From a virus (taxonomy: Duplodnaviria; Heunggongvirae; Uroviricota; Caudoviricetes), in the IMG/VR virus record IMGVR_UViG_2706794662_000015: a stretch of 5,033 bases of DNA; one strand, 5' to 3'. Position 1 is the stretch's first letter, and every line of letters begins with the position of its first letter. The notes beneath the pieces are model-generated. The model saw only the letters and a program-made list of their open reading frames with translations, was not told where the DNA came from and did no database searches. This document shows positions 872 to 4,469 of the stretch, piece by piece. The position numbers and the translations under genes were made by a program.

Positions 872-1567
872 CTACTTAACAACCCTCGAATGGCTAACAT
901 TCGGACGCCAGCTCTCCCAGTTAAAATTCACCCAGCGCCCGCCGTTCATGACCATGCGATCCATCACCCGCTCGCCGAGCAATGTTTTCATCACCTCATA
1001 GTTCAGGTTTGTCAGCATCCCCACGCTGCGCATCGACGCTGTCCGGCGATCAACAATCTGGTGCAGCACCACCTGCTCGTTTTTCGTCTCGCGCTGAATG
1101 CCAATTTCATCAAGAACCAGCAGATCCACTTCGCACAGCTCCCGCAAAAATTTTTCGCCTGACTGCCCGTCGTCATAGCTGGCGTGCAGGGCGCTCATAA
1201 CATCAGCCACGGTAACCACAATCACTGTCTGACCGTCTTTCAGCAGGCGATTCCCGATAGCTGCCGCTAAGTGATTCTTCCCGGTACCAGGTTTTCCGCT
1301 GAACGCAAAATTTGTACACCCGGTCATCAGTTCATCGGCGATGGATTTCGCCTGGCTTAACGCGTATCGCTGGCCGTCGTTCTGCACCTGGTAATTCGCA
1401 AACGAGCATTTACGGTGCAACGGCTGGATGCCTGAGCGATTCAGAATTTTTTCCACCCGCAACTGGCGATTCAGGCGGTTGATCTCCTCGCTACGTTTCT
1501 GGCCTTCAGCAAGTTGCCACTCGCGCCACTCCGCTACCGTTCTGAATGGGGCGGTTACATGTGGCGG
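872..1567 (-). CDS. ydaV: DnaC-like AAA+ helicase loader, C-terminal 231 codons (YdaV-type prophage replication protein); 5' part cut off by the assembly gap
   Basis: Translation has Walker A (FSGKPGTGKNHLAAAIGN), Walker B (DLLVLDEIG) and a C-terminal MLTNLNYEVMKTLLGERVMDRM segment closely resembling E. coli DnaC as I remember it. Stop TGA at 872..874. The frame is continuous with the N-terminal fragment once the duplicated overlap is collapsed. Symbol assigned from family, synteny and reconstructed length (248 aa), not from a verified sequence match. Confidence 0.75.
   Translation of the reverse strand, partial: PPHVTAPFRTVAEWREWQLAEGQKRSEEINRLNRQLRVEKILNRSGIQPLHRKCSFANYQVQNDGQRYALSQAKSIADELMTGCTNFAFSGKPGTGKNHLAAAIGNRLLKDGQTVIVVTVADVMSALHASYDDGQSGEKFLRELCEVDLLVLDEIGIQRETKNEQVVLHQIVDRRTASMRSVGMLTNLNYEVMKTLLGERVMDRMVMNGGRWVNFNWESWRPNVSHSRVVK
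1363..1567. repeat. Left copy of an approx 205-bp diverged direct duplication flanking the assembly gap (about 94% identical to 1818..2022)
   Basis: Manual alignment of 1363..1567 to 1818..2022 shows about 13 mismatches, mostly synonymous in the DnaC-like reading frame. Confidence 0.85.
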
Positions 1568-1817
1568 NNNNNNNNNNNNNNNNNNNNNNNNNNNNNNNNN
1601 NNNNNNNNNNNNNNNNNNNNNNNNNNNNNNNNNNNNNNNNNNNNNNNNNNNNNNNNNNNNNNNNNNNNNNNNNNNNNNNNNNNNNNNNNNNNNNNNNNNN
1701 NNNNNNNNNNNNNNNNNNNNNNNNNNNNNNNNNNNNNNNNNNNNNNNNNNNNNNNNNNNNNNNNNNNNNNNNNNNNNNNNNNNNNNNNNNNNNNNNNNNN
1801 NNNNNNNNNNNNNNNNN
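1568..1817. other. Assembly/scaffold gap (250 N)
   Basis: Uninterrupted run of n from 1568 to 1817. The length is not a multiple of 3, so ORFs read across it are artefactual. Confidence 0.97.
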
Positions 1818-2022
1818 CATGTCGCTGACCGTCGTTCTGCGCCCGGTAATTCGCAAACGAACACTTCCGGTGCAACGGCTGGATGCCGGAGCGGTTCAGG
1901 ATTTTTTCCACCCGCAACTGACGATTCAGGCGGTTGATCTCCTCGCAACGTTTCTGGCCTTCAGCAAGTTGCCACTCGCGCCACTCCGCAACCGTTCTGA
2001 ATGGGGCGGTTACATGTGGTGG
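1818..2022. repeat. Right copy of the approx 205-bp diverged direct duplication flanking the gap
   Basis: See 1363..1567. The same codons (…PPHVTAPFRTVAEWREWQLAEGQKR…) are encoded on both sides with a few substitutions (S/C, QV/RA, Y/H). Confidence 0.85.
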
Positions 2023-2073
2023 GGTCAGTCTGCGGATACGCTCCAGAACGCCTCCTGTCGCAATATTTTTCAT
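1818..2073 (-). CDS. ydaV: DnaC-like helicase loader, N-terminal 85 codons (MKNIATGGVLERIRRLTPPHVTAPFRTVAEWREWQ...), truncated at the gap
   Basis: ATG at 2073..2071 lies 6 nt after the initiator stop (2080..2082), preceded by AGGGGG. Collapsing the overlap with 872..1567 gives a 747-nt, 248-codon gene, the length I recall for Rac YdaV. Confidence 0.7.
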
Positions 2074-2079
2074 GGTCTG

Positions 2080-3228
2080 TTACCCCCTGAAGCCTGGCGG
2101 GATCGCACTGTCCGGCAACGAGACGGTGTTAACCTGTCGGAGCAACGTCTCAGGCCGAACACCTTTCGGCGCGAACAGACCCTGGTATTCATTGGCGATG
2201 CTGTGTCGAATCACCTGCTCAGGTGTAAAACCCTGCTGACGGAATTTTTCCAGTTCCCGTATCGCCCCGTTAGCGCCCTGCTCCGTTCGAATCGGTTTTC
2301 GCAATGCCTGCCTGAACTGGACCCACTCATGCCAGAGTGTTTCTGGCAACCAGTCGGGCAGATCAACTGACAACGGGTCAAATTTTTTCTGGCGAACAGC
2401 CCCACCGATAACCAGAATTCCCTGCTCGGTGTGCCTTGCGATATCACTGCGCCGCAAGACACATATCCCGGTTTCAACAGCACCGATTTTGAGCAGTGAT
2501 TTCTGTCGCGGAGAATTTCGGTCAAGCTCGCTCCCACACCGGACACCGTTCCTGTCAGTCACGACGATATCAATCCGCCCTCCGCAACCGTCACCACGCT
2601 CTGGCACCGGATACTCACGACAGACATCCAGGCCAGCAGCCTGCAACGCAACCACCGCAGAATTACAAAATTCCGCTGCAGTACCGCCAGATAATCTCCC
2701 CTCAAGCACTCCAGCCACAAAATCCCGAAACTCCCTTCCGGAAGGGAAGGGTTTGGGATGGGTTAGATCTGTTTTTAGATCTTTATCTGTATCTTTATTA
2801 GTTGCCTTTGTGTTGGCATCATGTTCGAACATCACTCCAACATCTGTTTGAACACCTGTTAAATTTCTCTCTTGTTTTGTTTGAACATCTGCTTCCTTTC
2901 TGCTTCTTCTGGCCTGAACAGATGCTTTTCCTGCGGCTGATTTTTTGGTTAATTTTTCTCTGACAGATGCCAGATCTTCCTCAATCCGAAGATGCATCCA
3001 TTCGTCGCCGTTATCACAAAAAAACTCCCGCAAGGATGGTTCAACATCAACCCATCGCTCGTTAGTCAGACGGGCAATTTTTGCCAACCTGTTTTTGGGT
3101 ATTGGCTTTCCTGTTTGCCAGTAATTGAACATCAGCAACAAATACGCGCCGTGCTCCTCTGCTGACAAATGCATGGTGTCAGCCAGGTAATCAGCTATGT
3201 ACAGTTGCATGTATGGTAATGCGGCCAT
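2080..3228 (-). CDS. Phage replication initiator/replisome organiser: DUF1376-like N-terminal domain, charged linker encoding ori-like repeats, central domain of unknown function, DnaT-like C-terminal domain (YdaU/lambda-O functional analogue)
   Basis: ORF track 2080..3279 (399 aa). I place the start at ATG 3228 (MAALPYMQLYIADYLADT...), which fits the usual N-terminus of this family; the upstream 17 codons are hydrophobic and lack a convincing RBS. The C-terminus ...NTVSLPDSAIPPGFRG closely resembles the C-terminus of E. coli primosomal protein DnaT as I recall it. It sits directly upstream of, and near-coupled to, the DnaC-like gene. Confidence 0.75.
   Translation of the reverse strand: MAALPYMQLYIADYLADTMHLSAEEHGAYLLLMFNYWQTGKPIPKNRLAKIARLTNERWVDVEPSLREFFCDNGDEWMHLRIEEDLASVREKLTKKSAAGKASVQARRSRKEADVQTKQERNLTGVQTDVGVMFEHDANTKATNKDTDKDLKTDLTHPKPFPSGREFRDFVAGVLEGRLSGGTAAEFCNSAVVALQAAGLDVCREYPVPERGDGCGGRIDIVVTDRNGVRCGSELDRNSPRQKSLLKIGAVETGICVLRRSDIARHTEQGILVIGGAVRQKKFDPLSVDLPDWLPETLWHEWVQFRQALRKPIRTEQGANGAIRELEKFRQQGFTPEQVIRHSIANEYQGLFAPKGVRPETLLRQVNTVSLPDSAIPPGFRG
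2761..2900. repeat. Putative replication origin inside the initiator gene: AT-rich tract with two AGATCT and three 6-bp ATCTKT repeats (2764..2796), then three copies of palindromic TGTTYGAACAYC (2821..2833, 2846..2857, 2878..2889)
   Basis: Read directly from the sequence. The segment is visibly lower in GC than the flanking coding sequence and encodes a charged, low-complexity linker (residues about 128-177). In lambdoid phages the origin iterons lie inside the O gene. Confidence 0.5.
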
Positions 3229-3291
3229 AATTGCCCCGTATGATGCTGCCCGGTTGCTTAGAATAAGCACAAACAGCATGGAAACTTTTGC

Positions 3292-3714
3292 TTAATGAAC
3301 AATGACAGAATCGTCGGAAGACCCGCCGCCGCTGAAATGCGCTTTCCGGTAAACGGCCTGGACTGCATCATCATGCGCATCAATTGCCGTACTCAACGCT
3401 TCCTGCGCCGCCAGTAATGCACGGCGTTCCAGGGTATCGAAGATGCAGAGTCGGTGACGCAGCTCGCGCGGAAGAATTGCCAGAACCGCAGGGATCAGTT
3501 TCTGAATTTTTTCCCTTTGCGCTTTCGTTTCACCTTTCAACCAACGGTGATAGATATTCTGCTGATTGTTCCAGTCCTTGCCTGGTACAAGGGGCAATTC
3601 GCCGCCCCCCTGGCGCAGATATTCTTCAGTAATTGCGTTAGCGACCCACGCCTGCCCTTTTTCGGCTGCCAGGGCTAACAACACTGATTCGATGTGCTCA
3701 TGCCTGATTTTCAT
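3292..3714 (-). CDS. ydaT: cII-like / YdaT-like prophage protein (140 aa)
   Basis: Intact ORF whose ATG (3714..3712) overlaps the upstream stop in an ATGA junction (3711..3714), indicating translational coupling. Position (after the cro-like gene, before the replication genes) and length (140 aa) match Rac YdaT. The symbol rests on synteny and length, not on a verified alignment. Confidence 0.6.
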   Translation of the reverse strand: MKIRHEHIESVLLALAAEKGQAWVANAITEEYLRQGGGELPLVPGKDWNNQQNIYHRWLKGETKAQREKIQKLIPAVLAILPRELRHRLCIFDTLERRALLAAQEALSTAIDAHDDAVQAVYRKAHFSGGGSSDDSVIVH

Positions 3715-3953
3715 GAATCAACCGCTCCTATGCTGTTTTCGCTATGCTTACCGTCTGGGGGGAATACATCGTCAAGTCCACAATGAGCGCCAAGCCGATT
3801 AAGGGTAGAAACAATTTTTCTGCACTCCTCTAGTCCAGGGGTACGAAAATTTGCTTCGTAATTTGCCAGTCGGCTTTGTATCCACCCTAACTGAACAGCA
3901 AGTTGTCTTTGAGACAGCCCAAGCTGTTTTCGATATGTTGAAATTTTGTTCAT
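3711..3953 (-). CDS. Cro-like HTH_XRE DNA-binding protein (80 aa), YdaS-like
   Basis: ATG at 3953 with GGAGG RBS 7 nt upstream. HTH signature QLGLSQRQLAVQLGWIQSRLANYEA. Divergently transcribed from the repressor gene. Confidence 0.75.
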   Translation of the reverse strand: MNKISTYRKQLGLSQRQLAVQLGWIQSRLANYEANFRTPGLEECRKIVSTLNRLGAHCGLDDVFPPDGKHSENSIGAVDS

Positions 3954-4049
3954 TGAAAACCTCCGATGACAATTTTAAACACACCTTGTGTTATATAGCC
4001 AAGCTGTTTTGTGTTTTATGTAAATCACGATTCGTGATACAAGGATGCA
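3954..4049. promoter_or_regulatory. Divergent promoter/operator region between the cro-like and cI-like genes. Candidate operators: AACACA-cct-TGTGTT (3978..3992) and ATCACGA-t-TCGTGAT (4024..4038). Candidate leftward promoter: -35 at 3997..4002 and -10 at 3974..3979 on the minus strand, 17-bp spacer containing the first palindrome
   Basis: 96-bp AT-rich spacer between divergent HTH genes containing two perfect inverted repeats. The promoter hexamers are weak matches, so their assignment is tentative. Confidence 0.45.
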
Positions 4050-4469
4050 ATGGAAAAAGAAAACGAAAAAATTGCCGCTAGTAGGCTCAATGACAAAATT
4101 GCAATGCGTCTTAAAGAGCGCAGGCAGAAGCTTGGTTTATCTCAAGGAAAACTTGCTGAAATCTGCGGATGGACGCAATCGCGTATAGGTAACTATGAGG
4201 CGGGCAGCAGAAATGTTGGAGTACATGACGCTGTCGTATTGGGAAAGGCACTTGGCATATCTCCTCCTGAGCTCCTCTTTGGAGAACAGGAATCTTCTGA
4301 ATTGTGGTTAAATGAATCCCAACGAAAACTTCTTGAGTTGTTTAACCAGCTACCGGGCTCAGAACAACAACGAATGATTGAGCTATTTGAAGTCCGGCTA
4401 AAAGAAATCGATGAGTATGTAGAAAAATATTTGAGAGGCAGGATTAAAGATAATCCCCCACCGGAATAA
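4050..4469 (+). CDS. cI-like prophage repressor, HTH_XRE family (139 aa), RacR/DicA-like; no LexA-type (S24) autocleavage domain
   Basis: ATG at 4050 with AAGGA RBS (4041..4045). HTH QKLGLSQGKLAEICGWTQSRIGNYEAG is closely related to the cro-like protein's HTH. The C-terminal half is helical-looking (LLELFNQLPGSEQQRMIELFEVRLKEIDEYVEKYL) and lacks the Ala-Gly/Ser/Lys pattern of S24 peptidases. Confidence 0.75.
   Translation: MEKENEKIAASRLNDKIAMRLKERRQKLGLSQGKLAEICGWTQSRIGNYEAGSRNVGVHDAVVLGKALGISPPELLFGEQESSELWLNESQRKLLELFNQLPGSEQQRMIELFEVRLKEIDEYVEKYLRGRIKDNPPPE

Follow-up and report, generated by a model that had tools for sequence, protein, structure and literature searches.

In phage lambda, the replication origin lies inside the initiator gene O, behind the part encoding the N-terminal DNA-binding portion: four iterons occupy O nt 349-433 (codons ~117-145, or ~117-160 together with the AT-rich block), and on the coding strand they are followed, on the promoter-distal side, by an A-rich block. 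An origin within its own initiator gene is a known kind of arrangement, and the idea is not new. A second close system is the Rac prophage of Escherichia coli K-12, whose origin, oriJ, was reportedly mapped by Diaz et al. in 1979. A later paper describes Rac as carrying an active origin, oriJ (PMC3945230), and oriJ-based plasmids have been studied (Potrykus, 2000, cited in PMC11014345). Here we analyze a 5,033-nt stretch of a Caudoviricetes genome (IMG/VR record IMGVR_UViG_2706794662_000015), hereafter the window, and in particular a cluster of phased repeats and A-rich DNA at 2763-2889, inside its YdaU-family initiator-type gene. This cluster very probably serves a Rac-like lambdoid prophage as its vegetative replication origin, a counterpart of oriJ embedded in the initiator gene ydaU; many phages that are not related carry the same module. 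All coordinates are those of the window, gene nucleotides are counted from the MAALPY start of YdaU, and the minus strand is the coding strand for the early genes.

The original prediction proposed a lambda-like arrangement, and the locus bears this out, with an initiator-type gene, a DnaC-like loader gene downstream of it and a repeat cluster after the N-terminal domain. As in lambda, the repeat array lies past the N-terminal domain (gene nt 340-418, or 340-429 with the half-site at 2800-2803, compared with 349-433 in O), an easily melted AT-rich block adjoins it (gene nt 419-466), the order on the coding strand is repeats and then A-rich block, the initiator gene stands between a CII-like gene and a helicase-loader gene, and the N-terminal half and the repeats move as a unit. 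This match in position and order to the origin within gene O is one argument for reading the cluster as an origin. The proteins differ, however: the N-terminal domain of YdaU is DUF1376, the only family that Pfam finds, and its sequence does not match lambda O; in place of lambda P there is a loader of the DnaC-type AAA+ class; and the YdaU C-terminus is DnaT-like. The repeat is also distinct from the lambda iteron, as had been anticipated, consisting of 10-12-bp AACA/TGTT palindromes with ~11-bp phasing, whereas the iterons are annotated as 18 bp in the lambda record. By analogy, the YdaU module would work like the lambda arrangement without being a member of the O family. The A-rich blocks of the two systems look alike by eye (ACACAAAG...), but 394 of 2000 shuffles score as well, and we rejected homology between them.

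With K-12 Rac, the window shares both gene order (repressor, cro-like, YdaT, YdaU and DnaC-like YdaV, corresponding to racR-ydaS-ydaT-ydaU-ydaV) and DNA with ~97% identity from the N-terminal domain through the repeats to the A-rich block, while differing in an extra middle domain, of ~114 aa in this comparison, that starts at the edge of that block. Since Rac is reported with oriJ, the ~97% identity of the repeats to K-12 ydaU further supports an origin at this position. The MG1655 RefSeq record annotates no origin feature in this stretch, and the literature that we searched contained nothing relevant on ydaU as an origin and none of the repeat strings. For Rac-type prophages, the analysis offers base-level coordinates of a likely origin, with matches in 1506 of 5426 complete E. 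coli genomes; for the window itself, the result is mostly a tidier annotation.

Phased repeats and an A-rich block inside ydaU

The cluster falls, as predicted, in the linker after the N-terminal domain, at codons ~114-156. Three palindromic elements with the sequence TGTTYGAACAYC are present at 2822-2833, 2845-2856 and 2878-2889, spaced 23 and 33 bp from start to start (the 25 and 32 bp originally given need correcting), and none of 200 dinucleotide shuffles reached three such 12-mers, for which the expectation is 0.01. These three belong to a longer array of AACA/TGTT half-sites, such that the two 4-mers together reach 10 per 100 nt at 2791-2920, compared with a window mean of 1.3 (standard deviation 1.7). 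On the coding strand, AAC triplets start at 2860, 2848, 2825, 2814 and 2803, in steps of 12, 23, 11 and 11, and a further AACA/TGTT copy lies at 2878-2887. Copy 1 of the repeat (2878-2889, coding strand GATGTTCAAACA) sits in an 11-nt stretch specific to the Rac type. It is followed by a repeat pair at 2839-2860 (coding strand AACAGGTGTTCAAACAGATGTT), which includes the copy at 2845-2856 and, in an alignment with 16 homologues, matches the family core AACGnnCGTTC-AACGnnCGTT. Copy 3 (2821-2833) contains the perfect palindrome TGTTCGAACA (2822-2831), and two more phased AAC half-sites, 11 bp apart, complete the array at 2800-2814 (AACA at 2811-2814 and AACT at 2800-2803), in columns that are conserved in homologues. 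The repeats thus defined correspond to codons ~114-136, or ~114-143 with the half-sites to 2800.

Beside and partly overlapping the array is the A-rich, low-GC block at 2763-2810 (codons 140-156; coding strand CAACTAATAAAGATACAGATAAAGATCTAAAAACAGATCTAAC), a candidate DNA-unwinding element. It has the lowest GC of the ydaU gene, and no 50-mer in the 5-kb window, intergenic DNA included, is less stable than the one starting at 2762, whose free energy (dG) is -56.0 against a mean of -69.2 (standard deviation 4.6). The low-GC island described earlier is likewise evident, GC being 0.37-0.38 over 2750-2899 and 0.52-0.61 in the 3' half of the gene. Non-random repeats beside the least stable DNA of the window argue for an origin. 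Within the block lie the tandem ATCTKT repeat, which Tandem Repeats Finder reports as 3.3 copies of ATCTTT at 2779-2798, and two AGATCT motifs (2765-2770 and 2777-2782); both had been noticed before, but the GATC-containing motifs carry no weight, being neither enriched nor conserved across the family. The three AGATCT sites of the window, against 0.95 expected, were matched by 16 of 200 shuffles and are not above chance. A role for GATC and SeqA was considered and rejected, with 16 GATC sites in the window against 19 expected and the AGATCT sites missing from several homologues. No DnaA boxes were found in or near the cluster, and their total in the window is not enriched. Just 3' of the A-rich block, still inside the gene, the coding strand carries a terminator-like hairpin and T run (TTCCGGAAGGGAGTTTCGGGA TTTTGTGG; 2723-2743, minus strand).

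Conservation of the DNA and a recurring repeat family

To tell constraint on the DNA from constraint on the protein, we collected 29 genomic loci with relatives of the N-terminal domain, ranging from Escherichia to Pseudomonas and a Methylococcaceae genome and from 100% to 46% identity. Nucleotide conservation among these relatives is above 0.8 at the gene start, declines to 0.45-0.6, rises again to 0.72-0.76 over the repeats and the A-rich block, and then falls below 0.3. We also asked how often two sequences that encode the same amino acid share the codon, using 15 non-Escherichia homologues. This codon identity is 0.51 in the DUF1376 core and 0.45 downstream, with values of 0.92, 0.70, 0.99 and 0.91 for the four successive 10-codon blocks covering the repeats and the A-rich block, the A-rich block accounting for 0.99 and 0.91 across genera. 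Despite these frozen codons, amino-acid identity over the region is below that of the DUF1376 core. Two indels, of 11 nt and 1 nt, separate the window from its homologues and shift AACAGGTGTTC by one reading frame relative to all 16 of them, with the DNA kept; within the window, copy 3 is likewise in a different reading frame from copies 1 and 2. The same DNA kept in different frames points to a DNA element overlapping the coding sequence. As judged from these alignments, selection in the repeat and A-rich region acts on the DNA and not on the protein, which is a further argument for an origin. The computational test proposed at the outset has the anticipated outcome: at this position homologues retain repeats and an A-rich block, with frozen synonymous sites, while the flanking linker and downstream domains vary or are swapped.

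In most homologues the core reads AACGnnCGTTC-AACGnnCGTT, CCGTTnGAAC and CAACGG, followed by CAACTAATAAAGATACAGATACAGATCTAAAAGA, with AAC triplets every ~11 bp, so that the family-wide repeat can be written as AACGNNCGTTC with 11-bp phasing. The window and Citrobacter braakii, its closest non-Escherichia relative, have AACA/TGTT across the copies where the others have AACG/CGTT. Such a concerted change from AACG to AACA is as expected if a site and its reader switch specificity together, and it argues for an origin; the AACA and AACG classes would form a natural specificity-swap pair. The family pattern is AACRnnYGTTC, phased at 11 bp and accompanied by an A-rich block, 320-420 nt downstream of where the domain begins; the window fits it with its AACA/TGTT variant at nt 340-429. 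Among more distant relatives, Pseudomonas phage PfDIW6 has four 11-bp units and then a purine-rich run, and Moraxella phage Mcat25, at 31% protein identity, has AACGACCGTTCAAC three times followed by AACCAATAACCA repeats. The open reading frame (ORF) of Mcat25 stops inside the A-rich block, and the motif is still kept. The motif of the module is better conserved than the proteins, being identical in Moraxella phages and enterobacterial relatives at that 31% protein identity. Different repeats occupy this gene position in two further phages, one of Rhizobium and one of Acinetobacter.

A reverse test, starting from the DNA motif, leads back to initiator-type genes. Searching a viral contig collection with AACGNNCGTTCAACGNNCGTT returned at least 120 stretches, compared with 6 for a scrambled pattern of the same composition, and placement was counted in 80 viral-contig loci from this search. 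The motif lies 200-700 nt past a DUF1376 start, on the same strand, in 63 of the 80 (the offset in 59 measured loci is 321-420 nt, median 338), and 356-380 nt after the start of a Lin1244_N domain in another 10. Altogether, 73 of 80 loci place the motif after one of these two domains; two of the other seven are cut by the locus end. An A-rich repeat usually follows the motif in these loci, the lowest-GC 40-mer being mostly 20-60 nt after the first repeat pair. This placement in viral loci again argues for an origin. A distant blastn search of the origin region against phage records matched only two Rac-like phages. Plasmid records with DUF1376 genes were also considered and set aside, since they are mostly large replicons and say nothing on autonomous replication.

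The ten Lin1244_N (PF14297) loci, from IMG/VR, encode proteins that lack DUF1376 (one representative was checked against Pfam) and carry the peptide AGKASAEKR..NDRSTTVQQ together with the DNA AACGACCGTTCAACGACCGTTCAAC and then AAAGTAAAGGAAAG repeats. Because they share both peptide and DNA with the DUF1376 proteins, two initiator families with different heads would share one origin-like module; the shared AGKASA and AACG repeat hint that the basic helix, and not the winged helix, may be the reader. Three other IMG/VR loci contain 8-12 tandem copies of the 11-bp AACGNNCGTT(C/G) unit, and copy number is accordingly highly variable within the family. A further variant, seen in Pseudomonas, Kosakonia, Phytobacter and Leclercia genomes (L026-L029 and L032), combines DUF1376 with a T5orf172/GIY-YIG-like domain and DnaT and lacks AACG repeats. 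In these genes, GTAGCTACG / CGTAGTAGCTACG palindromes occur several times, both within the inserted domain and beyond it, and the genes keep a TACAGATACAGAT A-rich block, except for L029, which has AATAAAGATCTAGATAAAGAT there.

It is possible, if a little short of an even bet, that the window origin is a variant of a widespread and apparently undescribed phage module, in which an 11-bp AACGNNCGTT(C/G) array and an A-rich block directly follow a conserved AGKASA helix behind either of two N-terminal domains with no assigned function, DUF1376 or Lin1244_N. If so, recognition of the site would fall to the basic helix that both families share, and not to the winged helix, which varies, and origins would be predictable in thousands of phage genomes. 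More broadly, DUF1376, and probably Lin1244_N, can be read as predicted origin-binding initiator domains with an embedded origin, and AACGNNCGTTC units next to an A-rich block could serve as a simple DNA signature for locating phage and prophage origins.

The initiator genes are also modular, with mosaic recombination joints in a zone at 2763-2789, the 3' edge of the A-rich block. Homology to K-12 ydaU runs as far as ~2767, beyond which K-12 lacks 340 bp, and in other E. coli alleles the break falls at query nt 694-710, equivalent to window 2773-2789. In E. coli ETEC4075 (L038, 3100-3330, minus strand), an initiator-type protein of 378 aa has an unrelated N-terminus (MASNWIKLEV..., no Pfam match) and is homologous to the middle and C-terminal domains of the window protein from GATCTAACCC onward. 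At the same gene position its gene has repeats of its own, GGTAACGC/GCGTTAC, with a (GAAGAG)n purine-rich run. This fusion with its own repeats suggests that head and repeats travel together, the joint lying where the A-rich block ends on its far side, and lambdoid O genes have likewise been described as carrying head and repeats as one travelling unit. A modular initiator with joints at the A-rich edge adds to the case for an origin.

Origin function and competing explanations

For the predicted origin at 2763-2889, we propose that early transcription from the immunity region would yield YdaU and the DnaC-like loader YdaV. YdaU would bind the phased AACA/TGTT palindromic sites at 2811-2889 through its N-terminal winged helix, perhaps together with the adjoining basic helix, and the A-rich block at 2763-2810, the easiest-melting DNA of the window, would open. 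The DnaT-like C-terminal domain of YdaU would then recruit the host helicase, DnaB, bound to YdaV. Observed here are the repeats, the unstable DNA beside them, conservation at the DNA level and the layout of protein domains; that YdaU binds, that the DNA melts and that helicase is delivered are inferred.

Several points weigh against this picture. Recent work calls K-12 Rac replication-defective (PMC11014345), and the only 'oriJ' primers that we found (PMC3945230) map inside ydaV, ~700 bp downstream of the repeats. We rejected these primers as a map of the origin, as they served for copy-number polymerase chain reaction. The repeats probably, but not certainly, coincide with Rac oriJ. Local recombination could inflate nucleotide identity in the region. 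Finally, the different repeat of the T5orf172 variants and the sharing of the AACG repeat by Lin1244_N proteins speak against a simple rule of one domain and one site.

The conserved DNA could instead have another function, as a recombination joint for the exchange of initiator halves, an autoregulatory operator or a pause site in ydaU, and we consider this unlikely. Mosaic breakpoints do cluster at 2763-2789, and phages that often swapped a short common segment would stay similar there for that reason alone. However, a recombination joint leaves unexplained why phased palindromes change in concert, why they hold a fixed place after an initiator winged-helix domain in 73 of the 80 viral loci and why they are paired with the least stable DNA of the window. 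No promoter-like site was found at 2600-3400.

It is less probable still that the palindromes act through structure in mRNA or single-stranded DNA, whether in translation control of ydaU or as a primosome-assembly signal. The consensus structure from 16 homologues is one weak hairpin (-4.9 kcal/mol), the palindrome centres of 1-2 nt are too short for hairpin loops, and Rfam gives no match for an RNA element, even though 2755-2925 is predicted to fold somewhat more stably as RNA than shuffled sequence does (z of -2.4, with 5 of 200 shuffles as stable) and two pairs change on both sides among homologues. That apparent covariation is the same AACG-to-AACA change as above, which would be expected of a palindrome bound by a dimer.

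Strongly disfavoured, and marginally less credible again, is the view that the repeats are a by-product of a low-complexity protein linker (DVQT / GVQT, DTDKD) with no role for the DNA. The linker does have a simple composition, (GATACA)n is translated as (DT)n, and the copy number of the GATACA hexamer varies among homologues; yet synonymous sites are near-invariant where amino acids vary, the same motif occurs in more than one frame, both inside this gene and from one homologue to another, an 11-bp unit cannot hold a reading frame, and in Mcat25 the motif persists where the ORF ends. Chance repeats in an AT-rich stretch, for which only the small size of the motif speaks, are refuted by the absence of three copies from all 200 shuffles and by conservation of the element from Enterobacteria to Moraxella phages.

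Architecture of YdaU and the surrounding genes

The YdaU-family gene occupies 2080-3228 on the minus strand and encodes 382 aa from MAALPYMQ; MAALPY is the start in homologues, and an in-frame ATG at 3279 gives the 399-aa ORF (2080-3279) of the ORF list. DUF1376 (PF07120) is detected at the N-terminus with an E value of 7.3e-25 and 87.6 bits, against a cut-off of 30.1. This region (2875-3228, minus strand) comprises a winged-helix domain at aa 1-79 and then a long basic helix at aa 80-117 that includes AAGKASVQARRSRK. Searching PDB sequences with the DUF1376 profile gave no meaningful match. In an AlphaFold model of YdaU made with an alignment, the domain can be compared with the RepA_N initiators of Gram-positive plasmids (e.g., the pSK41 type), from which it differs in having 16% identity in the structural alignment and no detectable sequence similarity, as well as in hosts and C-terminal partners; the shared fold is a generic winged helix. 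The AAGKASVQARRSRK segment of the basic helix (2893-2940, minus strand, aa 97-112) is conserved as protein, its codons being free to vary (codon identity 0.43). AACA-class genes carry AGKASV where AACG-class genes carry AGKASA, and the ARRSRK stretch of the helix bears a resemblance, and only that, to a bZIP basic region.

At the other end of the protein, a DnaT-like C-terminal domain (aa 290-382; 2080-2361, minus strand) terminates in IPPGFRG. A phmmer search of the PDB matched these 93 residues to 2ru8_A (E 1.9e-4) and 9zbt_D (E 7.6e-4), both of which are DnaT, and Pfam detects the DnaT domain in the T5orf172-bearing homologue L026. YdaU as a whole matches the PHROG 'primosomal protein' (E 2.3e-116), and only its C-terminal part, aa 296-373, matches 'replication initiation O-like'. 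The gene downstream, ydaV (872-2073, minus strand), encodes a DnaC-like helicase loader (NCBIfam PRK12377, E 7.9e-144; DnaC, E 4e-88; phrog_50, 'DnaC-like helicase loader'). The pair therefore resembles host DnaT-DnaC, in that the YdaU C-terminus matches the DnaT C-terminal domain including IPPGFRG, YdaV matches DnaC and the two genes are adjacent. Host DnaT, in contrast, has neither DUF1376 nor an embedded repeat array, and it acts in replication restart and not at an origin. Because of the DnaT-like C-terminus and the DnaC-like next gene, YdaU looks like an initiator, with a predicted layout of DNA-binding head, linker and a tail that could handle a helicase-loader complex, and this architecture and gene context are a last argument for an origin in the gene.

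Between head and tail lies the middle domain (2365-2766, minus strand; ~134 aa), which appears as a gap in the alignment to K-12 YdaU. It has no match in Pfam, and PHROG gives only phrog_1347, with no function assigned. E. coli proteins of 376-380 aa carry the same domain joined to another N-terminal domain, and it holds a GRIDIVVTD...ELD stretch with a likeness to a nuclease-like motif.

Upstream of ydaU, Pfam and PHROG identify a YdaT/CII-like gene (3292-3714, minus strand), a cro-like helix-turn-helix gene (3711-3953, minus strand) and a divergent repressor-like helix-turn-helix gene (4050-4469, plus strand); besides the DnaC-like ATPase gene, the window also contains a gene for a DUF977 protein. 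The window thus spans the module for immunity and replication of a lambdoid prophage, and early rightward-type transcription from the upstream genes (3292-4469) would cross the repeats. A run of 250 N (1568-1817) splits the ydaV gene, and its flanks, 1380-1564 and 1835-2019, match each other at 174 of 185 positions. With its duplicated ydaV 5' flanks, this run looks like a scaffold gap joining two alleles or Rac-like prophages, and not like real biology.

The whole ydaU gene is 99.9% identical to that of E. coli FDAARGOS_944 (L001, 3001-4200), and the full-length allele occurs in only 2 of the 5426 complete E. coli genomes. In FDAARGOS_944, the intact 399-codon mosaic ydaU is annotated as two partial pseudogenes, a split that arises because the middle domain matches no YdaU model.

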